From an uncultured Chloroflexia bacterium (lineage in GTDB: Bacteria; Chloroflexota; Limnocylindria; Limnocylindrales; CSP1-4): a stretch of 64,000 nt of DNA. How positions within the stretch are numbered: the first letter of the stretch is position 1; every line of letters starts with the position of its first letter. Made by a program: the position numbers and the translations under genes. The stretch covers positions 199,899 through 263,898 of the forward strand of contig CAVZFY010000010.1 of NCBI GenBank assembly GCA_963774695.1, written 5' to 3'. The notes beneath the pieces are model-generated. The model was given only the letters and a program-made list of their open reading frames with translations, made no database searches and was not told the origin of the DNA. Below are positions 7,720-33,643 of this stretch, piece after piece.

Positions 7720-8516
7720 TCAGCGAAGGCTCTGGGCGACCTCGATCGTGCGGTCGCGGCCGAGCGTCGACGTGAGCCGGTACACCGTGCCGTCGCGCTC
7801 GAACACGAGCGTGTCGCCGACCAGCGACGCATACGCCACACCGACGGAGCCGTCGGGGCGCACGACCATGAGCTCGTGCGGCGCCCCGGAGATCCACCAG
7901 CCGCGCCCGCCGTCGACCGCGACCGGCTCGACCGTCGACCCGCGGCCGACCAGCTTCGTCACCAGGGTCTCGTCGAGGATCCCCGGGATCGCCATCACGG
8001 TCATGGCGAGGTCGCTCCCGACGAGGGCCGGCGCACCGTCGGCGGCGCGCCAGGCGAGCGTGACGATCCGGTGGTCCTGCACGCCGAGCACGTACGCCAC
8101 GTCGGGCGCGGCATCGCGGCGGGCGTCAGCACCCGCGGCTGGTCGAAGGCGCGGGCCTCGTCGAGGGGCACGGGCGAGCCGAGGTCGAGGGCCGCCCCGG
8201 CCGGCGGCAGGCTCGTGACCGGTCAGGATCTCCACGCCCGGCAGGCGGAAGCCGAGCGCGCCGGCGACGCCGGCGAGGGCGAGCGCCGCGACCAGCGCCA
8301 GCGCGACGACCGCCACCGCGCGCCGCACCGACGGGCGGCGGATCGGGCGGGACCGCGGCTCGAGCGAGGCGACGCCCGCGCCGCCGGCGGCACCGCGCCG
8401 CGTCCGCGATCCGCGCCAGCACCGTCGCTCGCAGGTCTGGGGTCTCGGGCCAGGTCGCGGTCGTGGCCGCGGCGCGCAGCAGCATCTCCACGCCCGTCTC
8501 CTTCGGGCGCCGTCAT
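7720..8516 (-). CDS. Putative anti-sigma factor or single-TM protein coupled to the ECF sigma; frameshifted
   Basis: Start overlaps the sigma stop codon. 'WPETPDLRATV' N-terminus, then a TM helix and an extracellular domain ('GRGWWISGAPHEL', 'TLVFERDGTVYRL'). Confidence 0.6.
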
Positions 8517-9115
8517 GGCGAGACCTCGGCGAGCGGCCCGACGCCGTCGAGCTCCTCGCGCAGCCGGGCGAGGCCGCGATGCAGCCGTGACTTCACCGTC
8601 CCGGCCGGGACCCCGAGCGCGGCCGCGGTCTCGGCCTCCGAGAGCTCGAGCAGGTAGCGGCACTCGACGACGAGTCGCTCCTCCTCGCGCAGGTGGCCGA
8701 GCGCCGCGCGGACCTCCGCGTGCGACTCGCCCGCGAGCAGGACGTGCTCCGGGGATGGCGCGATGCCGGCCGCGGCGTCGCCGCGGACCGCGCGGATCGC
8801 CCGGTCGAGCACCCCGGCGCGCCGCCCGAGCGCCCGCCGGCGGTTCCGGGCCTCGTTGCCGACGACCTGGAGGAGCCAGGGCCGGAACGGTTCGCCGGCC
8901 CGGAACCGCGCGAGCGCGAGATAGGCGCGGACGAAGCCCTCCTGGGCGGCATCCTCGGCGTCGGCGGCCGACCCGAGCAGCAGGTACGCCACCCGGAAGG
9001 CCGCGCCCTGGTGCATCGTCACGAGCTCGCCGTACGCCGACGCGTCGCCGGCCTGGGCGCGCCGAACGAGCACCGCCTCGGCGGCATCGGGCTCGTCGGG
9101 CGCCGCCGGCCGCAC
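8513..9115 (-). CDS. ECF-family RNA polymerase sigma factor
   Basis: Region 2 'DAEDAAQEGFVRAY...FRPWLLQVVGNEARN'; region 4 'LSEAETAAALGVPAGTVKSRLHRG'. Confidence 0.92.
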   Translation of the reverse strand: MRPAAPDEPDAAEAVLVRRAQAGDASAYGELVTMHQGAAFRVAYLLLGSAADAEDAAQEGFVRAYLALARFRAGEPFRPWLLQVVGNEARNRRRALGRRAGVLDRAIRAVRGDAAAGIAPSPEHVLLAGESHAEVRAALGHLREEERLVVECRYLLELSEAETAAALGVPAGTVKSRLHRGLARLREELDGVGPLAEVSP

Positions 9116-9122
9116 GAAGGCG

Positions 9123-9820
9123 TCAGGCCTCGCGCGCCGGCTCGGACGCGGGGTGGGCGGGGATCCGCGACCGCCGGTTGGCCGCGAGCATCAGCCCGAC
9201 GCCGGCGAGGAGCCCCGCCAGCGCGACCGGCGGCGACGAGGAGCGCGACCGCCAGCGTCGACGGCGCGGGGACCGAAGCCGGCGCAGGCGCGGTGGCCGG
9301 AACGGCTGCCGGGGCGACGGCGGGCGGCGCGACGGACGCCCGCGCGAGCGGCGTCACCGCCGGCGCGAGCGCGGGCGCGACCTGGGCCGTCTGCGCGTCG
9401 ATCCCGCCCGGGACGAGCGCCAGGCCCACGAGCTCGATCGGCAGGTCGCTCGTGCCCCGGACGCCGACATCGACCGAGGCGGTCCCGGCCGGCGGGACCT
9501 CGATCCGGAACAGGTAGTGGCCGCTCTTGTCCTCGCGGCCCATCTCCCGGACCGACGACCCGTCCCGCCCGACGAGCTCGAGGTAGAGCGGCGAGCCCTC
9601 GACAGGATGCGTGACGGAGCCGTCGGGAAAGATGACCGACACGCCGACGAGCAGCGTCGTGCCGCCGGGGGTGTCGCGCCCGATCGGGGCGTCGAGGAAC
9701 GCCTGGAAGCCCTCCTTCGCGAGGGCCGGGCCGGCCGCGACGGCGGCGAGCGCCAGGGCGGCGAGGAGGGCCGGAACGGTCCCCAGCCCATGTGGTGGTT
9801 CGGCGGTTCAGGGTGCGCAT
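9123..9820 (-). CDS. Secreted, C-terminally anchored hypothetical protein; frameshifted
   Basis: Signal-like 'LLAALALAAVAAGPALAK', a small beta domain, an Ala/Pro linker, then a C-terminal TM and basic tail. Confidence 0.55.
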
Positions 9821-9850
9821 CGTGGCCTCCAGCGGCGGTGTCTGCGCGTG

Positions 9851-10795
9851 TTACACCGCCCGGTCGCCGTCGGTTCCCGGCAGTGGCCGCGTGACCGGGC
9901 GGCCGCCGGCGAGCCACGTCGGGCTCCGGAGCGGATGGCCGACCGCCGACGCGATGTACGCCGACGCCGCCATCACCCCATCGAGGCTCACGCCGTGCTC
10001 GATGCCGAGCCCGTCGAGCAGGTAGACGAGGTCCTCGGTCGCGAGGTTGCCGACGGCGCCCGGGCCCGCGAAGGGACAGCCGCCGAGGCCGCCGGCCGAG
10101 CTGTCGATCACGGAGACGCCGCGCTGGAGCGCCGCGAGCACGTTGGCGAGCGCCTGGCCCCGGGTGTCGTGGGCGTGCAGGCCGATCCGCTCGATGCCGA
10201 CGACCGGCACGACGGCGTCGAGGACGCGGTCGACGTCGCCGGGCGTCGCCGCCCCGATCGTGTCCCCGAGCCCGATGTCGTCGCAGCCGAGGTCGACGAG
10301 GCGGCCGGCGACGGACGCGGTGGTCGACGGCGCGACCGCCCCCTCGTACGGGCACCCGAACGCCACCGACACGTAGCCGCGGACGCGCATCGAGCGCGCC
10401 TTGGCGCCCGCGATGACGGCGTCGGCGTCGGCGAGGGCCTCGTCGGTGGTGCGGTTGAGGTTCGCCCGGTTGAAGGAGTCGGTGGCGCCGATCACGACCG
10501 CGACCTCGTCCGCGCCTGCGGCGATCGCGCGCTCGAGGCCACGCAGGGTCGGGACCAGGACCGGGTAGCGGACGCCGGGCCGTCGGTCGAGCGACGGGAA
10601 CAGGACGTCGGCGTCGGCGAGCTGCGGCACGGCGCGCGGGTGCACGAACGACGTGGCCTCGATGACGGACAGCCCGGCGGCACCGAGGCGGTCGATGAAG
10701 CCGCGCTTGACCTCGGTCGGGATCTCGGCGGCCTCGTTCTGGAGCCCGTCGCGCGGGCCGACCTCGACGATCGTGACCGCCGCCGGGAGCGTCAT
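9851..10795 (-). CDS. Hydroxymethylglutaryl-CoA lyase
   Basis: '[13 protein letters not shown]', '[12 protein letters not shown]', '[17 protein letters not shown]'. Confidence 0.95.
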
Positions 10796-24876: not shown

Positions 24877-26162
24877 ATGGCCGAGACCACGAACCTGGAC
24901 ACCTCGCCCGCCGCCGCCGTCGCCCGTCGGGCCCCCCTGCCGCCTGTGCGGCCGGCCCCTCACGATCACGTTCGTCGACCTCGGGGCAGTCGCCGCTGTG
25001 CGAGCGGTTCCTGACCGCGGCCGAGCTCGACGAGATGGAGCCCTTCTACCCGCTCCATGTCCGGGTCTGCGGCAACTGCCTGCTGGTCCAGCTGCCCGAG
25101 TACGTGTCGCCCGACGAGATCTTCCGCGAGTACGCGTACTTCTCGTCGTTCTCGGACAGTCGTGGGTCGAGCACGCGCGTCAATTCGCCGACACCATGAT
25201 CGAGCGGCTCGGCCTCGGACCCGACAGCCGCGTCGTCGAGGTCGCCAGCAACGACGGCTACCTGCTCCGGCACTTCGTCGCGCGCGGCGTGCCGGTCCTG
25301 GGCGTCGACCCGGCGCGCAACGTCGCCGAGGCCGCGCGCGGCCCAGGGCGTCCCGACGCTGGCCGAGTTCTTCGGGCGTCGCGCTCGCCGAGTCGCTGCT
25401 CGCCTCGGACGGCCCGGCCGACCTGATCGTCGCCAACAACGTCTACGCGCACGTGCCGGACCTGCACGACTTCACCGGCGGGCTTCAAGGTGCTCCTCGC
25501 GCCCGGCGGCACGATCTCGATCGAGTTCCCGCACCTCGTCCGGCTGATCGAGGGGAACCAGTTCGACACGATCTACCACGAGCACTTCTCGTACTTCTCG
25601 CTGCACACGTCGTCGGCGGCCCTCGCCGCGCACGGCCTGCGGGTGTTCGACGTCGAGGAGCTGCCGTCGCACGGCGGCTCGCTGCGCCTGTTCGCGGCCC
25701 ACGAGGACGATCCCCGGCCGACCTCGGAGCGGGTCGTCGAGCTGCTCGCGCGCGAGCAGGCAGCGGGCTACACGACCGTCGAGGGCTACCCGCCGTTCGC
25801 CGAGCGCGTCGCGGCCACCAAGCGGGCGCTGCTGGCGTTCCTCGTCGCCGAGCGGGACGCCGGCCGGACGATCGCCGCCTACGGGGCGCCGGGCAAGGCC
25901 AACACGCTGCTCAACTACTGCGGCATCGGGCCCGACCTGATCTCGTTCACCGTCGACCGCAACCCGTACAAGCACGGCCGGTTCACGCCGGGCATGCGCA
26001 TCCCGATCCGGCCGCCCGAGGCGCTCGACGCCGACCGGCCCGACGTCGTGGTGATCCTGCCCTGGAACCTGCGAGCGCGAGATCGCGGCACAGCTCGCGC
26101 CGTTGCGCGCGGCCGGCACCCGCCTGGTCGTCCCGATCCCGGTGGTCGAGGTCGTCGAGTGA
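24877..26162 (+). CDS. NDP-hexose C-methyltransferase (Zn-binding N-domain, SAM domain, Methyltransf_14 C-domain), copy 1; frameshifted
   Basis: 'CRLC...FVDLG.SPLC', 'VCGNCLLVQL', 'EVASNDGYLL', 'FDTIYHEHFSYF', 'HGGSLR', 'YGAPGKANTLLN', 'LPWNL'. Confidence 0.9.
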
Positions 26163-26187
26163 GCCACGGCGCGGTGCGCCCAGCGGC

Positions 26188-26985
26188 ATGAAGGTCGTCC
26201 TGTTCTGCGGGGGCCAGGGCCTCCGCCTGCGTGAGAGCAGCGACGTCCTGCCCAAGCCGATGACCCGGATCGGGTACCGGCCGATCCTGTGGCACGTGAT
26301 GCGCTACTACGCGCACTACGGCCACCAGGACTTCGTGCTCTGTCTCGGCTACCGGGCGGACGTGATCAAGGACTACTTCCTGCGCTACGACGAGGCGGTG
26401 TCCAACGACTTCGTGCTCAGCCCGGGGCGCCAGGTGGAGCACCTGTCCACGGACATCGCCGACTGGCGGATCACGTTCGCCGACACCGGGGCGCGGACCC
26501 TCATCGGGCAGCGCCTGCTCCGCGTCCGCCACCACCTCGAGGGCGAGGACATGTTCCTGGCGACGTATGGCGACTGCCTGACCGACGTGAACCTCGACGA
26601 GGTCGTCGAGCAGTTCAAGGCCTCTGGTCGCGTCGCCGCGTTCATCAGCGTCCCCGCGAAGGGCTACCCGTTCCACCTCGTCGAGTTCGGCCAGGGCGAC
26701 CAGGTGACGGGCGTCCGGGACCCGGTCGATGCGGGCCTGCGGATCAACGGCGGGTACTTCGTGTTCCGGCCCGAGATCTTCGACTACATCAAGCCCGGCG
26801 AGGAGCTCGTCGAGGCGCCGTTCCACCGCCTGATCGCCGAGCGCCAGCTGCTGGCCGTGCGCCATGACGGATACTGGGCGCCGATGGACACGCTGCGCGA
26901 CGTGCACCGCCTCGAGGCCGAGGCGGAGTCGGGACGGCCGCCCTGGGCGCCCTGGCTCGCGGCCACCGGGAACGCCGCCCGTTGA
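26188..26985 (+). CDS. rfbF: Glucose-1-phosphate cytidylyltransferase-like nucleotidyltransferase, copy 1
   Basis: 'MKVVLFCGGQGLRL', 'PKPM..IG.RPILWHVM', 'TYGDCL', 'INGGYFVF', 'HDGYWAPMDTLRD'. Confidence 0.88.
   Translation: MKVVLFCGGQGLRLRESSDVLPKPMTRIGYRPILWHVMRYYAHYGHQDFVLCLGYRADVIKDYFLRYDEAVSNDFVLSPGRQVEHLSTDIADWRITFADTGARTLIGQRLLRVRHHLEGEDMFLATYGDCLTDVNLDEVVEQFKASGRVAAFISVPAKGYPFHLVEFGQGDQVTGVRDPVDAGLRINGGYFVFRPEIFDYIKPGEELVEAPFHRLIAERQLLAVRHDGYWAPMDTLRDVHRLEAEAESGRPPWAPWLAATGNAAR
26241..26561 (+). repeat. Left arm of a ~320 bp near-identical inverted repeat, inside rfbF copy 1
   Basis: Matches the reverse complement of 29130-29451 with 3 synonymous substitutions and 1 indel (compared by eye). 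Confidence 0.92.
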
Positions 26986-27636
26986 TCGCCCCGCTGCGGA
27001 TCGAGGCCCCGGCCGACCGGCCACTGCGGCTGCTCGCGCTCGGCGCCCACCCCGACGACATCGAGATCGGCGCGGCGGGCCTCGTGGCACGGCTCGTGGC
27101 GGAGGTCCCGTCCCTCGCGGTCCGCTGGCTGATCGCCACGGGCGCGGAGCCGCGGATCGACGAGGCACGCCGGGCCGCGGACGGCCTGCTGGCGGGCGTC
27201 GCCGAGGCGCAGGTGGACATCGCCGGCTTCCGCGACAGCTACCTGCCCGTACCAGGGCGACGGACCCAAGGGCTGGCTCGCGGGCCACGCCGGGTTCGCG
27301 CCGGACATCGTGCTCAGCCCGTGGCGCGGCGACGCCCATCAGGACCATCGGCTGCTGGGCGAGCTCGTCTGGCAGGTGTTCCGCGACAGCCTCGTGCTGG
27401 AGTATGAGATCCCCAAGTTCGACGGCGACCTCGGTCGGCCCAACGTGTTCGCGGCGCTCGACGAGCCCGCGGCGGAGCGCAAGGTGCGCGCCGTCCTCGA
27501 CGGCTTCCCGAGCCAGCAGGGCCGTCGGTGGTTCAACGCCGAGACGCTGTGGGCGCTGATCCGGCTGCGCGGCCTTGAGGCCGGCGCCGAGAGCGGCTGT
27601 GCCGAGGCGTTCCACGGCACCAAGATCAGGATCTAG
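26982..27636 (+). CDS. PIG-L/LmbE family deacetylase; frameshifted
   Basis: '[10 protein letters not shown]', 'DAHQDH', '[13 protein letters not shown]'. Confidence 0.88.
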
Positions 27637-27644
27637 GAGACCCG

Positions 27645-28682
27645 TTGCGCATCCTCGTCACCGGCCACCTCGGCTACATCGGCACCGTCCTCACCCCGAT
27701 GCTCATCGACGCGGGCCACGAGGTCGTCGGCCTCGACAGCGACCTGTACGAGAAGTGCACGTTCGGCGCGCCGCCCGCGGTCCCGGCGATCGCGGACGTC
27801 GAGTGGCTGCGGACCGACGTCCGTGACGTCACCGCCGAGCAGCTCCACGGCTTCGACGCGGTGCTCCACCTGGCCGCCCTGTCCAACGACCCGCTGGGCG
27901 ACCTCGACGAAGACCTGACGATGGCGATCAACCACCGCGCCTCCGTCCGGCTCGCGGAGCTGGCGAAGGAGGCCGGGGTCGGGCGCTACGTGTTCTCGTC
28001 GTCGTGCAGCAACTACGGCGCGGGCGGCGACGGCCTGCTCGACGAGTCGGCGGCGCTGAACCCGGTCACCGCGTACGGCCGGTCCAAGGTGCTCACGGAG
28101 CGCGACGTCGCCCCGCTCGCCGACGACCGGTTCAGCCCGGTCTTCCTGCGCAACGCGACGGCGTACGGCGTCTCGCCGCGTCACCGCTTCGACATCGTCG
28201 TCAACAACCTGACCGCCTGGGCGGTGACCACCGGCAAGATCATGCTCAAGAGCGACGGGACGCCCTGGCGGCCGCTGGTCCACATCGAGGACATCGCGCG
28301 GGCCTTCATGCTCGTCCTCGACGCGCGCCGGGACCTCGTCCACGGCGCGGTGTTCAACGTCGGGTCGTCGGACGAGAACTACCGCATCCGCGAGGTCGCG
28401 GAGATCGTGGGCGACGTCGTGCCCGACTGCGAGGTCTCGTTCGCCGACGGCGCGTCGCCCGACCTGCGCGACTACCGGGTGGACTGCTCGCACATCGCCC
28501 GGACGCTCGGCTACCACACGACCTGGGACGTGCTGCGCGGCGTCCAGCAGCTCTACGCGGCGTACAAGGCGATCGGGCTGTCGCTCGACGAGTTCGAGGG
28601 GCCGAAGTTCCAGCGGATCGCGCACATCCGCGAGCAGCTGGCCGACGGCCGGCTCGACGCGCAGCTCCGCCGGCAGGACTGA
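27645..28682 (+). CDS. NAD-dependent epimerase/dehydratase (extended SDR)
   Basis: '[11 protein letters not shown]', '[11 protein letters not shown]', 'SSSCSNYG', 'YGRSK', 'LRNATAYG'. Confidence 0.93.
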
Positions 28683-28711
28683 TCCCGAGGCCCGTCGCAC
28701 CCGGGCGACGG

Positions 28712-29504
28712 TCAGGACGGGCCGGGCGCCGGCTCCCGCCATCGGGCCCAGGGCGGGTTGCCCTGCTCCTCGAGCGACTCCAGGGTCGCGAGGTCCTTGA
28801 GCGTGTCCATCGAGACGTAGAAGCCGTCGTGGCGGAAGGCCGCGAGCTGGTCCTCGGCGACGAGCCGGGTGAACGGCTCCTCGACCAGGTCCTCGTTGCC
28901 GCGGACGTAGTCGAAGATCTCGCGCCGGAACATGTAGTAGCCGCCGTTGATCCAGATCCCGGCGTCGTGGGCGTCGGCGATGTCGGTGATCTCGCCCTGG
29001 GCGTCCGCGCGCACGACGTGGAACGAGTAGGCGGGCCTCGCCGCGATGAGCCCGGCCACCTTGCCGCTCTCGCGGAACGCGGCCACGATCTGGTCCAGCG
29101 GGGCGTCCGTGACGACGTCCCCGTAGTTGGCCAGGAACATGTCCTCGCCCTCGAGGTGGTGGCGGACGCGGAGCAGGCGCTGCCCGATGAGGGTCCGCGC
29201 CCCGGTGTCGGCGAACGTGATCCGCCAGTCGGCGATGTCGGTCGGACAGGTGCTCCACCTGGCGCCCCGGGCTGAGCACGAAGTCGTTGGACACCGCCTC
29301 GTCGTAGCGCAGGAAGTAGTCCTTGATCACGTCCGCGCGGTAGCCGAGGCAGAGCACGAAGTCCTGGTGGCCGTAGTGCGCGTAGTAGCGCATCACGTGC
29401 CACAGGATCGGCCGGTACCCGATCCGGGTCATCGGCTTGGGCAGGACGTCGGTGGTGCCGGGGAGCCGCAGCCCCTCACCGCCGCAGAACAGGACGACCT
29501 TCAC
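28712..29504 (-). CDS. rfbF: Glucose-1-phosphate cytidylyltransferase-like nucleotidyltransferase, copy 2; one frameshift near 29243
   Basis: 'MKVVLFCGGEGLRL', 'NYGDVVTD', 'WINGGYYMF', 'HDGFYVSMDTLKD'. Confidence 0.87.
29130..29451 (-). repeat. Right arm of the ~320 bp inverted repeat, inside rfbF copy 2
   Basis: Reverse complement of 26241-26561. Confidence 0.92.
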
Positions 29505-30759
29505 CCGGCGAGCCTACCCGACGCGGGCGGGCCGACGTCGGCGAGCGTCGGGAGCGGCACCACGAAACGGGTCCGGCCTGCCAGCTCCGGAAGCTGGGCG
29601 ACGACCTCGGCCGCGAGGTCCCAGGTGAGGACGAGGAGCTCGTCGGGCGGCGCGTCGACGAGGACGCCCGGGTCGCGGATCGGGATGCCGGTCCCCGGCA
29701 GGTACCGGCCGTGCTTGGCGGGCGATCGGTCGACGGTGAACGGGAGGTCATCGACCGTCACGCCCGCGGCATTGAGCAGGGTCACCGCGCGGGTCGGGGC
29801 GCCGTAGCCGACGACCGTCCGGCCGGCGGATGCCGCCTGCTCGAGGTGGGCACGGACTGCCGCGCACAGGTCGGCGACGCGCCCGGCGAGGCTCGCCAGG
29901 AACGCGGGGTCCTCGAGGCCGGCCGAGCGCTCGCCGCGCAGGACGGCGTCGACCGAGCCGTCGGGCGCCGTCGCCTCGTTCGGGGGCGCCCCGGTGGGCC
30001 TGACCGTGATCCGCAGCGCGCCACCGTAGACCGGCTGGTGGGTCGCCCGGGTCACGACAAGGCCGTGGCGGGCGAACAGCGGCACCAGGGCGGCCAGCGT
30101 GAGATAGCTGAAGTGGCCGTGCCGGACCGCGTCGAACTGGACCTCGCCGATCGTCGACCCCGCGTGGTCGAACTCGACGACGGCCGTCCCGCCGGGGGCC
30201 AGGAGCCAGGCGATCGCGGCGACGCCGGCGTCGAGATCGGGCAGGTGGGCGAGGCGGTAGACGTCGATCAGCAGGTCGGCGGACCCGGGTGGCACGTCGT
30301 CCGCGTCCTCGTCCTCCGGGTCGGCCTCGATCACGCGATGACCGTCGGCACGCAGCGACGCGGCGCGCCAGTCGACCGCCTCGTACACGATCGCCTCGAT
30401 CCCGCGCTCCCGCAGCATCGGCGCGACGTGGCCGCCGTGGCTGGCGAGGTCGACGACCCGGCCGTCGGGACGGAGCAGCCCGGCCGCGGTCCAGCTCGTC
30501 GAGGAGACGCCCGACGTGCGCGGCCATCGTCGCCGACGACGTCCACGCCGCGGCGCCGACGAGGTCCTCCTCCGGCGGCGAGTCGCCCAGGAGCTGGAAC
30601 AGCCCGCAGGCCGGGACATCGCCCGAGCACGAGCGGCCATTCCGCGACCGGGGGCGTCAGCGGCGTCTCGGGAAAGGAGTCGGCCCGGGGCTGCCGGCCG
30701 AGGTCGAGGACGACGTCCGGGTCGGCGGCATGGCAGGCACGGCAGGCGCCGGTGGGCAC
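29501..30759 (-). CDS. NDP-hexose C-methyltransferase, copy 2 (divergent paralog); frameshifted
   Basis: 'CRAC...LDLGRQPRAD', 'VDLASHGG', 'QFDAVRHGHFSYL', 'YGGALR', 'YGAPTRAVTLLN', 'LTWDL'; AGGAG SD. Confidence 0.85.
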
Positions 30760-31042: not shown

Positions 31043-31124
31043 GTCCACGAAAAGGCACACCCGTCGCGAGGCGGGGCCGCAAAGCCACGGGACTCCCTGA
31101 GTCAGCCGGGTTGCCGAATGGTGG
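31043..31124 (+). ncRNA. Cyclic di-GMP-I (GEMM) riboswitch
   Basis: CCACG-AAAA-GGCACAC-CCGTC-GCGA-GGCGG-GGCCGC-AAAGCC-ACGG-GACTC-CCT-GAGTC-AGCCGGGTTGCCGAATGG. Shows a GNRA-capped P2, the GCAAAGC junction, P3 and the P1 closure, about 10 nt upstream of an ATG. Confidence 0.9.
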
Positions 31125-31133
31125 TGGTATTGC

Positions 31134-33643
31134 ATGTTTTGGGATGGGGAGCGCTGGCTCCCGGACCAGCCGCGCGTCGTCAAGACGCCCTCCAGGCCCC
31201 GCCCAGCCCTCCGCACGCCGTCCTCGCGGCTGGCTGGCGAGCGGCGTGGCAGTGGTCGCGATCGTCGGGCTCGTCATCCCGATCGTGACCGTCTCCGCCG
31301 CCGGTGGGGATGGTCGAACGCTCCTCGCGAAGTGGTCCGCCGTCTCCGACGTCTCCGTCCAGCAGGAGTCGAGTGACCGGCTCACGTACCGCGGCACCTG
31401 GTTCACCGCCTTCTATCCGGACTACCTGAGCGGCAAGGCCCGCGCGACCGATACGGCGGGTGCCAGCGTCGGCCTCAGGTTCCATGGAGCGGGCGTGTCG
31501 TGGATCGGCCCCATGGGCCCGACGCGTGGCTCGGCGAAGGTCTACATCGACGGCAAGCTCACCGCCACCGTGAGCTCGTTCTCGACCGCCTTCCGGCCGA
31601 CCCGCGTGCTGTACCGCAAGGCCTGGGACAAGGCCGGCAGCCATCGCATCCGCGTCGTCGCCGACGGCACGCCGGGCCACCCGACCATCGCTGTCGACGC
31701 GCTCATCATCCGCTCCGACACCAACGACGACGTCGGGCCCCGTCGACGACACCGGCAACCCGATCGGGACCCCGGTCCCCGACCCCTCGCCGAGCGTCAA
31801 GCCCGACCCGACTCCGACGCCGACGCCCGTTCCCCCGCTGGAGCCGGCGAAGCACACGCCTGCGCCGACCCCGACGCCGACCCCTGCGCCGACGCCCACG
31901 CCCACGCCGGTGCCCGCCGACGCCCGCACCTACGCCCACCCCGACGCCGGTACCGACGCCCACGCCCACGCCGGCGCCCCCGCAGGCACCGACCCCGACC
32001 GTGGCGCCCACGCCGACGCCCACGCCCGTGCCGACGCCGACGCCGACGCCGGTACCCACGCCCACGCCCACCCCGCGGCCCACACCGACGCCGACGCCGC
32101 GACCCACGCCGACGCCCACGCCGGTCCCGACACCCACGCCCACCCCGCGGCCGACGCCCACGCCGACCCCGGTTCCCACGCCGACCCCGACGCCGGTGCC
32201 GACCCCGACGCCGACGCCGGTTCCCACGCCGACGCCCACCGTCGCGCCCCCCGTGATCGGCTCCATCCTCGTGTCGAACGTCACCCAGAACGCCGCGACG
32301 ATCACGTGGACGCTCAACATGCCCGCCACGGGCCAGGTGCAGTACGGCACGACGACGGCCTACGGGGCCGCCTCGACGCCCGAGCTGAGCTACAACTACT
32401 CGTCGCACGCCCAGGCCATCTCGGGCCTGAGTGCCGGAACCCTGTACCACTTCCGGGTCACGTCGACCAACGCGGGCGGCGCCACGGTGAGCTCGGGCGA
32501 CCAGGTGTTCACGACCCTGGCCGCACCGGTTCCCACGCCGACACCCGTGCCGACGCCGACCCCCACCCCGGTGCCGACGCCCTCGCCGACGCCGGTCCCG
32601 ACGCCGACGCCCACACCCCCGCCGCCCCTCGGCGGGTCCTCGAGCTGCACCCGCAACGTCAACGTCGACGCGAGTGGCAACAGCGGACGTGACGCTCGTC
32701 GCTCCAGAGCTTCATCGACGCCAGCCCCAACGGGTCGACGATCTGCTTCGCCAGCGCGGGCCAGTACAGGGTCAACGGCACGCTGCATCTCTCGAACCGG
32801 AGCAACCTCACGTTCGAGGGCAACAACGCCACGATCTTCCAGACGACGCGCTCAACGACGCGGATCTGGCTCATCGACAACGGCGGCAGCGGCATCACGA
32901 TGCGCAACCTCACGATCCGGGGCGCGAACCCGAACCCCGGCAAGTGGGACGTCACCTACGAGCACAACCACGCCATCCAGGTCGGTGGCGCGGTCCGCCT
33001 CGACTTCGACCACATCGCCGTCCAGAACGTCGGCGGTGACGCCCTGGGTGGCTACCTGTCGGGCGGCGCCAACCGCTGCGCCGACTCGATCCAGCTCCAC
33101 AACTCGAGCTTCGACGGGATCGGGCGCATGGGCGTCACGATCACGGACGGCGCCACCAACGTCGTCGTCGACTTCAACAGCTTCCGCCGCATCGGCTACT
33201 ACACCTGGGACATCGAGCCCAACGGCGCGACCGTCGGTGGCCAGCCTCGCCGGCGGCGAGCACGTCCAGTTCTCGGACAACAGCATCGGGACGAAGCCCT
33301 ACGGCGACTACCCGACCGACCCGACCCAGGCGACGGCTACGTCTTCGTCGTCACGGACGCCTCGGGCGGCGGCCCGGCCGTCGACATCGAGCGTCTCCCG
33401 GAACACCATGCTCGACACGACGATGGGTGTGTTCAAGATCGGCGTGTTCGGCAGCTCGACCCGCCAGAACTTCCGCATCAGTCGACAACACGGCGGCGAC
33501 CCGCGCGGCCGGGCCCGTGATGGTCTTCTCGGCGGTCAGCGGCCTGACCGTCACCGGGAACAGGCAGCCAGCTGAGCTCGGGGTCGCTCGCGAGCACCTC
33601 CGGCTGCTCATCGGTCAACGTCTCGGGCAACGTCACGAACTGA
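31134..33643 (+). CDS. Large secreted or membrane-anchored surface protein: WDGxxW N-motif, TM/signal, beta-sandwich, Pro-Thr linker, FN3, Pro-Thr linker, right-handed beta-helix; multiply frameshifted
   Basis: 'MFWDGERW', '[14 protein letters not shown]', '[10 protein letters not shown]', (PT)n, FN3 'ATITWT...GQVQYGTT...[12 protein letters not shown]', beta-helix '[12 protein letters not shown]...DIEPN'; ends '[10 protein letters not shown]'. Confidence 0.8.
31800..32240 (+). repeat. Coding tandem repeat (CCGACG/CCCACG)n encoding a Pro-Thr linker; a second tract lies at 32525-32620
   Basis: Imperfect 6-nt units grouped into 24-nt blocks such as PVPTPTPT and PRPTPTPT. Confidence 0.9.

Follow-up and report, generated by a model that had tools for sequence, protein, structure and literature searches.

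The 64-kb window analysed here (the whole 64,000-nucleotide stretch, from an uncultured Chloroflexota bacterium) carries two convergent gene units, each composed of a predicted sugar C-methyltransferase gene (MT1, MT2) followed by an RfbF-like sugar-1-phosphate cytidylyltransferase gene (rfbF1, rfbF2), which together enclose a PIG-L/LmbE-family deacetylase gene (pigL) and an epimerase gene. The two rfbF genes share a near-identical inverted tract that covers only their 5' parts. We consider this tract, with a probability of roughly 0.7, to be a real partial-gene palindrome that is kept by recurrent homologous recombination and that has given rise to at least one fixed inversion of the DNA between its arms, with an effect that would be regulatory at most. 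The window lies on contig C10 of an assembly (G000) of 3.75 Mb in 29 contigs, rated 72% complete, and has a G+C content of 73.6%.

In a gapped alignment, the left arm (321 nt) proved to be the reverse complement of the right arm (322 nt), bar three substitutions and one indel. All three substitutions (26343 T/C, 26355 G/C, 26451 G/C) are synonymous in the rfbF frame, and the indel is an extra base held by the right arm at position 29243. When the plus-strand unit was compared with the reverse-complemented minus-strand unit in 50-nt bins, identity amounted to 96-100% from ~26243 to 26541 (two bins having two mismatches and one a mismatch plus the indel), and to 54-80% in the bins flanking the tract on both sides. 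Outside the tract, the rfbF genes are 74% identical over nucleotides 1-53, 52% over 375-480 and 65% over 490-770, and the MT1 and MT2 proteins share ~41% of their residues. Because background identity is only ~65%, the 318 matches in 321 positions are not a chance event (0.65^318, or ~1e-59). The first-pass annotation of this DNA had described, from the letters alone, convergent twin methyltransferase-rfbF units with a ~320-bp inverted repeat, arms that differ by three synonymous changes and one indel, and clearly diverged first ~50 bp, rfbF 3' halves and methyltransferases; the alignments bear out each of these statements, the differences between the arms base by base.

The architecture is not confined to the window. 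An RfbF-like match at E<=1e-40 was present in 29 of the 70 genomes of the genus, five of which (G000, G077, G009, G018 and G068) contain a convergent rfbF pair 2.5-3.4 kb apart. A draw of 401 phylum genomes added two more, G336 and G443, from two other genera of the family, and a scan of genome contigs added L115, bringing the twin convergent loci to eight genomes in total. Seven of these eight have a near-identical 5' inverted tract, which begins at or near the rfbF start codon (Table 1), and the spacing of the arms ranges from 2.6 to 5.2 kb across the palindrome loci. The eighth, G443, lacks an identical tract, and its rfbF copies are separated by 7.4 kb that include additional genes. Extra DNA also separates the arms in G336. 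At L115, the palindrome and the pigL-epimerase pair are present and there is no methyltransferase gene within 9 kb, which suggests that the conserved core is the twin rfbF pair, not a swap of methyltransferases. Taken together, the palindrome is kept in at least seven uncultured soil genomes from at least three genera. The G068 and G336 assemblies are 93-95% complete and have all six genes intact.

We compared the core tract within and between species in five of these genomes. The two copies inside one genome are 97-100% identical (G336 and L115, for which within-genome tracts were considered, gave 98.8-100%), whereas identity between species is 94-96% for G000 versus G077, 90-92% among G009, G018 and G068, and 82-85% between these two clades. 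For the last 280 nt of the rfbF genes, the values are 58-70% within a genome versus 71-94% between orthologous copies. Within the tract, then, paralogues of one genome are more alike than orthologues of different species. This argues for separate homogenisation in each lineage after speciation and, as far as the sequences can tell, indicates that recurrent gene conversion keeps the rfbF 5' parts near-identical. The sharp tract borders had been read as a sign of gene conversion from the outset, and every tract-bearing genome examined accords with that reading by displaying concerted evolution.

Beyond conversion, the gene maps point to a change in orientation. A tree built on the C-terminal region of the methyltransferases split them into two types (100/99): type I comprises MT1, its G077 counterpart, the MTa proteins of G009, G018 and G068, and the products of single-copy genes, and type II comprises MT2, its G077 counterpart, and the MTb proteins of G009, G018 and G068. 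The gene order in the window and in G077 is MT-I, rfbF, pigL and epimerase, facing rfbF and MT-II, while G009, G018, G068 and G336 have MT-I and rfbF facing epimerase, pigL, rfbF and MT-II. These maps support the conclusion that the segment between the rfbF 5' parts was inverted at least once in evolution. The alternative state predicted by the first-pass annotation, with pigL-epimerase behind the MT2-type unit, thus exists in four relatives, and both orientations occur when related species are compared. Orientation is uniform within each clade (2/2 genomes of the window type, 4/4 of the other type). Such uniformity would have odds of about 1 in 16 if flips were free and neutral, which is mildly improbable, and it is a weak argument that flips are rare or under selection.

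The diverged rfbF 3' parts give a further, fainter signal. When compared with the other clade, the 3' part of rfbF1 matches pigL-adjacent copies at 65-66% identity and the remaining copies at 58-59%. Phylogenetic trees of this region included all twin-locus copies along with single-copy homologues from G001, G006, G007, G008, G014, G017 and G020, and excluded a partial match in G013 as well as paralogues of 38-45% identity. In a 17-row tree, pigL-adjacent and non-adjacent copies were separated by a single change (79/74), a split recovered in 88% of bootstrap trees. Besides, the MT-I-linked, pigL-adjacent copy of G443 joined the MT-II-linked, pigL-adjacent copies at 94/94 in a 21-row tree. The rfbF 3' halves may hence tend to travel with pigL rather than with the methyltransferase, as would be the case had the breakpoint fallen inside the tract.

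As to the direction of the change, a co-directional MT>rfbF>pigL cassette was seen at 37 of the 80 loci from metagenomes and at 52 of the 80 from genomes. Since this arrangement is common in unrelated bacteria, the window layout is probably ancestral and the other one derived. The cassette, often with an epimerase of the short-chain dehydrogenase/reductase (SDR) family nearby, was observed in Actinomycetota (Kribbella, Plantactinospora, Pseudonocardia and others), Chloroflexota, Acidobacteriota and Myxococcota; a literature search for its product turned up no describing paper. A different pairing, in which an RfbF-like gene and a 38-40% paralogue stand head-to-head, followed by an epimerase gene, occurs at L025 (in G006; 8176-9931) and at G052:C14:12906-14693, with no identical tract.

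How might such a locus evolve? In the scenario we favour, gene conversion between the inverted copies would homogenise the rfbF 5' parts, leaving the 3' halves and the methyltransferases diverged, and a reciprocal crossover, presumably inside the tract, would invert the 2.6 kb that hold the two rfbF 3' halves, pigL and the epimerase gene. RecA-type general recombination would be the likely mechanism, and the pigL-epimerase pair would have changed from MT-I linkage to MT-II linkage. In Salmonella, recombination between tufA and tufB results in inversion in up to 50% of events (PMC6735719). If conversion is tied to inversion here as it is in tuf, lineages that convert this tract are expected to invert the segment occasionally.

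A dedicated recombinase does not appear to be at work. In searches limited to PF00589 and PF00239, and in a genome that is 72% complete, contig C10 returned no recombinase match, in agreement with the initial remark that no site-specific invertase was visible; genome-wide, PF00589 matches were restricted to contig C7 and PF00239 matches to C11. Besides, site-specific elements rely on short repeats of tens of base pairs, and the arms measure 321 bp in the window and 320-510 bp in relatives, with borders that differ between the clades. Long coding arms with clade-specific borders fit general homologous recombination, not site-specific recombination.

The consequences of an inversion would probably be modest. 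Since the two 5' parts that change places are identical, the set of six proteins does not depend on orientation; in the window clade, the two RfbF-like proteins would swap their first 18 residues. The gene maps contain six intact genes in both states, each of them behind an upstream unit, and operon linkage alone differs. An inversion would thus only re-link operons, providing pigL, the epimerase gene and each rfbF 3' half with a new upstream unit. Its functional impact may be weak, regulatory at most and nearly neutral, and any change in a sugar or glycan would require upstream regions that are differently regulated.

This bears on whether the palindrome could be a working phase-variation switch that is independent of a recombinase, in which frequent flips within a population, between upstream regions that are differently regulated (one of them next to a gene with a cyclic di-GMP riboswitch), would determine the methyltransferase that is co-expressed with pigL-epimerase and thereby alter the modified CDP-sugar or glycan. 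We regard this as unlikely. Both orientations are indeed found in nature, yet each clade has just one of them. The tract is 100% identical in three assemblies and has at most one mismatch in a fourth, yet differs by 8-10% between species, which suggests that recombination is frequent relative to mutation; the arms are just 2.6 kb apart; and up to half of the tuf events couple conversion to inversion. However, general recombination acting on a 320-bp repeat would be expected to cause flips at rates well below those of classical phase variation. The palindrome is retained in at least three genera; L115 has it without methyltransferases, so the methyltransferase swap is not what the palindrome is conserved for. 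A cyclic di-GMP (c-di-GMP) riboswitch of class I is located close to the cluster, both in the window and in five of eight relatives' loci scanned. Every gene stays intact behind some upstream unit in either orientation, which leaves no ON/OFF state. Put in terms of selection, the palindrome would be an invertase-free flip-flop in which general recombination between the identical 5' halves reversibly transfers pigL, the epimerase gene and the rfbF 3' halves, as carriers of specificity, from one methyltransferase operon to another under different regulation, a proposal to which we assign similarly low odds. If it were true, soil Chloroflexota populations would keep two glycan-modification programmes in reserve, with one methyltransferase operon sitting beside a c-di-GMP-controlled surface-protein gene.

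Coming back to a rare, fixed inversion by homologous recombination, several points weigh against it. A first, 13-row tree of rfbF 3' parts left the window copies unresolved, and the 21-row tree needs two changes of pigL-adjacency labels. The 3' part of rfbF2 is about equidistant from both classes (58-64% versus 60-63%). When the 98 columns of the rfbF 3' alignment were put to an approximately unbiased (AU) test, both hypotheses survived, with p 0.18 for methyltransferase linkage and p 0.35 for pigL adjacency as the basis of grouping. On account of this test and these trees, a breakpoint inside the tract is favoured but not proven. In addition, a tblastx comparison of the window with G009 and G018 found no flank synteny beyond the six genes, which implies that the locus moved or was transferred and would leave room for independent assembly of the two layouts. 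Finally, the G000, G077, G009 and G018 assemblies are error-prone (64-77% complete), and small tract differences in them are unreliable.

One could argue on these grounds that there was no inversion at all, the two layouts having been built independently through separate insertion of MT-II-rfbF or pigL-epimerase, or through horizontal transfer, with conversion alone explaining the tract. The non-syntenic flanks, the methyltransferase-linked rfbF 3' grouping that the AU test retains, and a cluster content that varies (extra DNA in G336 and G443, no methyltransferases in L115) would accord with such a history. Still, a single crossover explains the difference between the layouts in one step, the six genes and the convergent frame being otherwise the same; the likelihood favours pigL adjacency, its logarithm falling by 2.7 with the pigL-adjacent copies held together versus 9.0 for methyltransferase linkage; and the 94/94 placement of the MT-I-linked G443 copy among MT-II-linked, pigL-adjacent copies speaks against independent assembly, which we deem quite improbable.

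That the near-identity is an artefact of assembly or polishing, reads of one paralogue having been mapped onto the other, as the first-pass annotation had considered, can be dismissed with high confidence despite the error-prone assembly, as sharp-bordered tracts occur in seven assemblies (two of them 93-95% complete), independent short-read contigs break at the same borders, and polishing is unable to raise ~65% identity to 99%. These contigs were built with k=31 from independent metagenomes (X1, X2, X4 and X5), and none of them bridges the repeat. Their ends fall at, or within ~30 nt of, the tract borders in the window: at the left arm, X1 and X5 contigs begin exactly at 26241 and one X2 contig begins at 26533; at the right arm, one X2 contig ends at 29158, and X1, X2 and X5 contigs begin at 29422. 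Such breaks are expected of a true repeat with two different flanks and render a polishing artefact unlikely. The metagenomes that match the window are from soil, mine and rhizosphere only, with 0.20-0.41 of its words present. Neither a comparison of MT1 with metagenome contigs nor one of rfbF1 with genome contigs retrieved a conspecific contig (best identity 64% and 66%, respectively). Certain joints in the X contigs seemed to skip or go back; as their sides measured 21-36 nt and matched at 90%, we took them for noise from other organisms.

The error-prone nature of the assembly is, on the other hand, apparent from its reading frames. The first-pass annotation had both rfbF genes in frame, which holds for rfbF1; rfbF2 as assembled is frameshifted after codon 87 by the extra base at 29243, probably an assembly error. 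Contigs from X2 and X4 are without one base at 29246, a site inside the repeat that can be assigned to either arm. MT1 has ~6 frame changes, pigL one (near 27246-27250), and MT2 two near its N-terminus (~30470 and ~30625). Those in MT1 coincide with insertions of one or two bases when G077 is taken as the reference (24988, 25158, 25339, 25374, 25480 and 26074), and one base is absent at 26073/26075 (MT1) in contigs from X1, X4 and X5, as is one at 27246/27249 (pigL) in contigs from X1 and X2. By composition-based frame segmentation, the window as a whole has 58 stop-less same-strand frame changes in 64 kb (9.1 per 10 kb), compared with 0-1.8 per 10 kb in the loci of five better relatives and 7.0 in the similarly incomplete G077. 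Even rpoB (G000:C16:109594-112900) is split over two frames. Given the window-wide rate, the split rpoB, the insertions relative to G077 and the bases absent from short-read contigs, we interpret these frame changes as assembly noise and reject pseudogene decay of MT1, pigL, rfbF2 and MT2. In the 93%-complete G068, the six orthologous genes are all intact, pigL included. With single-base indels this pervasive, frameshifts or 'pseudogenes' called in this genome should be accepted only if raw reads bear them out. A practical caution follows for the repeat as well: short-read assemblies break at it, and the consensus of a long-read metagenome-assembled genome may carry indels inside it.

Several known systems resemble the locus in part. 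At the sap S-layer locus of Campylobacter fetus, RecA-dependent inversion takes place between conserved 5' regions of sapA homologues. Long identical inverted 5' segments, diverged 3' parts and a surface-glycan or surface-layer context are features shared with the present locus, as would be inversion through homologous recombination in place of an invertase; however, the sap genes are divergent and the invertible piece carries a single promoter, so that inversion switches the expressed gene, whereas the rfbF genes converge, both units retain their own upstream region and inversion silences none of the genes. As with tufA/tufB, inverted paralogous coding sequences would be homogenised by general recombination, with conversion tied to inversion and no site-specific recombinase involved. 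Yet the tuf genes are homogenised over their whole length, lie far apart on the chromosome and pay a fitness cost for inversion, while at the rfbF locus homogenisation is limited to the 5' 40-65% of the gene and ends at sharp borders, the arms are 2.6-5.2 kb apart, and the inverted piece consists of rfbF 3' halves and two pathway genes, with both orientations fixed in different lineages.

In Saccharomyces, a 'flip/flop' region on chromosome XIV lies between inverted paralogues whose similarity is maintained by repeated homogenisation (PMC9731477). This segment, too, is found in either orientation when related species are compared, and homogenised inverted copies of a gene family form its boundaries, but it belongs to a eukaryote, spans 24 kb and varies in orientation within species; the present one is bacterial, 2.6 kb long, and its orientations were compared across species. 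Pneumococcal hsdS inversions (PMC4948785) are an example of recombinase-driven invertons or shufflons. As in such systems, inverted repeats within coding sequences here allow 3' gene parts to pass between expressed and partner copies. Systems of that kind depend on a site-specific recombinase of their own, have mostly short repeats and create new protein specificities, whereas our repeat is 321 bp of ordinary coding sequence, leaves the encoded proteins unchanged and has no tyrosine or serine recombinase on its contig.

What sets the rfbF locus apart from these systems is part-gene homogenisation with sharp borders, small spacing, convergent genes, and two states fixed across lineages. A literature search for the gene combination or architecture, which did not extend to supplements, turned up no paper on a twin-rfbF palindrome. 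Concerted evolution of inverted paralogues together with inversions is known from a few model cases such as tuf and C. fetus sap, and the loci described here form a natural series in which to study how the borders of conversion tracts are set, how often inversion accompanies conversion, and whether general recombination can act as a slow operon-rewiring device without a dedicated recombinase. Should the segment prove to flip within populations, a phylum about which little is known would offer glycan variation of a new type; otherwise, the locus is a neat but unexceptional example of ectopic recombination.

The features of the locus are compiled in Table 1. Searches against Pfam upheld the original gene labels (methyltransferases, NTP_transferase, PIG-L and Epimerase), with Methyltransf_13/23/14 domains found on the two methyltransferases; the epimerase is GalE-like and falls under the equivalog cut-off of NCBIfam. 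The genes are tightly packed, such that the MT1 stop and rfbF1 start, the rfbF1 stop and pigL start, and the MT2 stop and rfbF2 start all overlap. The hairpin in the spacer between the convergent stop codons could possibly serve as a two-way terminator; a consensus terminator scan did not call it. Consensus scanning for promoters and terminators gave one promoter-like and one terminator-like site, neither of which is informative in such a high-GC organism.

Table 1. Features of the twin rfbF locus and of related loci. Positions refer to the window unless a relative's locus is named; for tracts, the length is given.
Feature	Position or length	Strand	Evidence or remark
MT1, type-I sugar C-methyltransferase	24877..26191	+	PF08421, PF08484; zinc-binding, S-adenosylmethionine-dependent methyltransferase (SAM-MT) and C-terminal domains; start codon uncertain
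rfbF1, RfbF-like sugar-1-phosphate cytidylyltransferase, intact, 265 aa	26188..26985	+	translation, TIGR02623, PDB 1tzf
Left arm of inverted repeat	26241..26561	.	rfbF1 codons 19-125
pigL, PIG-L/LmbE-family deacetylase	26982..27636	+	PF02585 on both pieces; one frame change
NAD-dependent epimerase/dehydratase-family SDR, intact, 345 aa	27645..28682	+	PF01370, 148.9 bits
Spacer between convergent stop codons, 29 nt	28683..28711	.	7-bp GC hairpin CCGTCGC...GCGACGG
rfbF2, second RfbF-like gene	28712..29504	-	translations; NCBIfam match on C-terminal piece
Right arm of inverted repeat	29130..29451	.	alignment to left arm
MT2, type-II sugar C-methyltransferase	29501..30759	-	PF13489, PF08484
c-di-GMP-I-GGC riboswitch aptamer	31045..31119	+	RF03167 (CL00126), 63.9 bits vs gathering score 59; divergent from MT2, outside repeat
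Riboswitch, relative's locus L022	771-846		
Riboswitch, relative's locus L027	485-559		
Riboswitch, relative's locus L030	2396-2470		
Riboswitch, relative's locus L031	7004-7078		
Riboswitch, relative's locus L032	14975-15048		
Tract, window (G000)	321 bp		
Tract, G077	~320 bp		4 substitutions + 2 indels
Tract, G009	~510 bp		100%
Tract, G018	~450 bp		one 30-nt bin 97%, rest 100%
Tract, G068	450 bp		100%
Tract, G336	~380 bp		100%
Tract, L115	509 bp		98.8%

The name 'RfbF-like' was chosen with care. The reference enzyme, the glucose-1-phosphate cytidylyltransferase RfbF, converts CTP and glucose-1-phosphate into CDP-glucose. Against TIGR02623, its NCBIfam equivalog model, rfbF1 scored 219.4 bits and the two G068 copies 200.5 (a) and 217.5 (b) bits, all of them under the equivalog cut-off of 300.25, which makes it the safe designation, although the matches are full-length (1-256 of 255 positions). 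The match of rfbF1 to the solved structure of that enzyme, PDB 1tzf_A (E 3.8e-52), is full-length as well, aligning residues 2-256 with 4-258. The N-terminus of rfbF1 reads MKVVLFCGGQGLRLRE and includes a G-G-x-G-x-R-L loop, which we take to be the nucleotide-binding loop. As the C-terminal halves of the two RfbF-like copies differ, so may their substrates.

Divergent from MT2, the c-di-GMP riboswitch named in the first-pass annotation was recovered above the Rfam gathering threshold. The riboswitches near the cluster in relatives' loci belong to the c-di-GMP-I or c-di-GMP-I-GGC families. The gene downstream of the window riboswitch (~31500-33575) encodes a Pro/Thr-rich repeat protein without a Pfam match. 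In G068, the product of its counterpart combines GH16 with fibronectin-like domains (Pur_ac_phosph_N), and the gene for a glycosyltransferase of family GT2 stands between this counterpart and MT-II. The cluster may thus be linked to a c-di-GMP-controlled secreted or glycosylated surface protein. Within the window gene, positions 31760-32650 form a long imperfect repeat with a period of 12 nt (ACGCCGACGCCC-like; families D1-D3) that encodes the Pro/Thr-rich tracts, and similar repeats are located near the cluster in G009 and G020.

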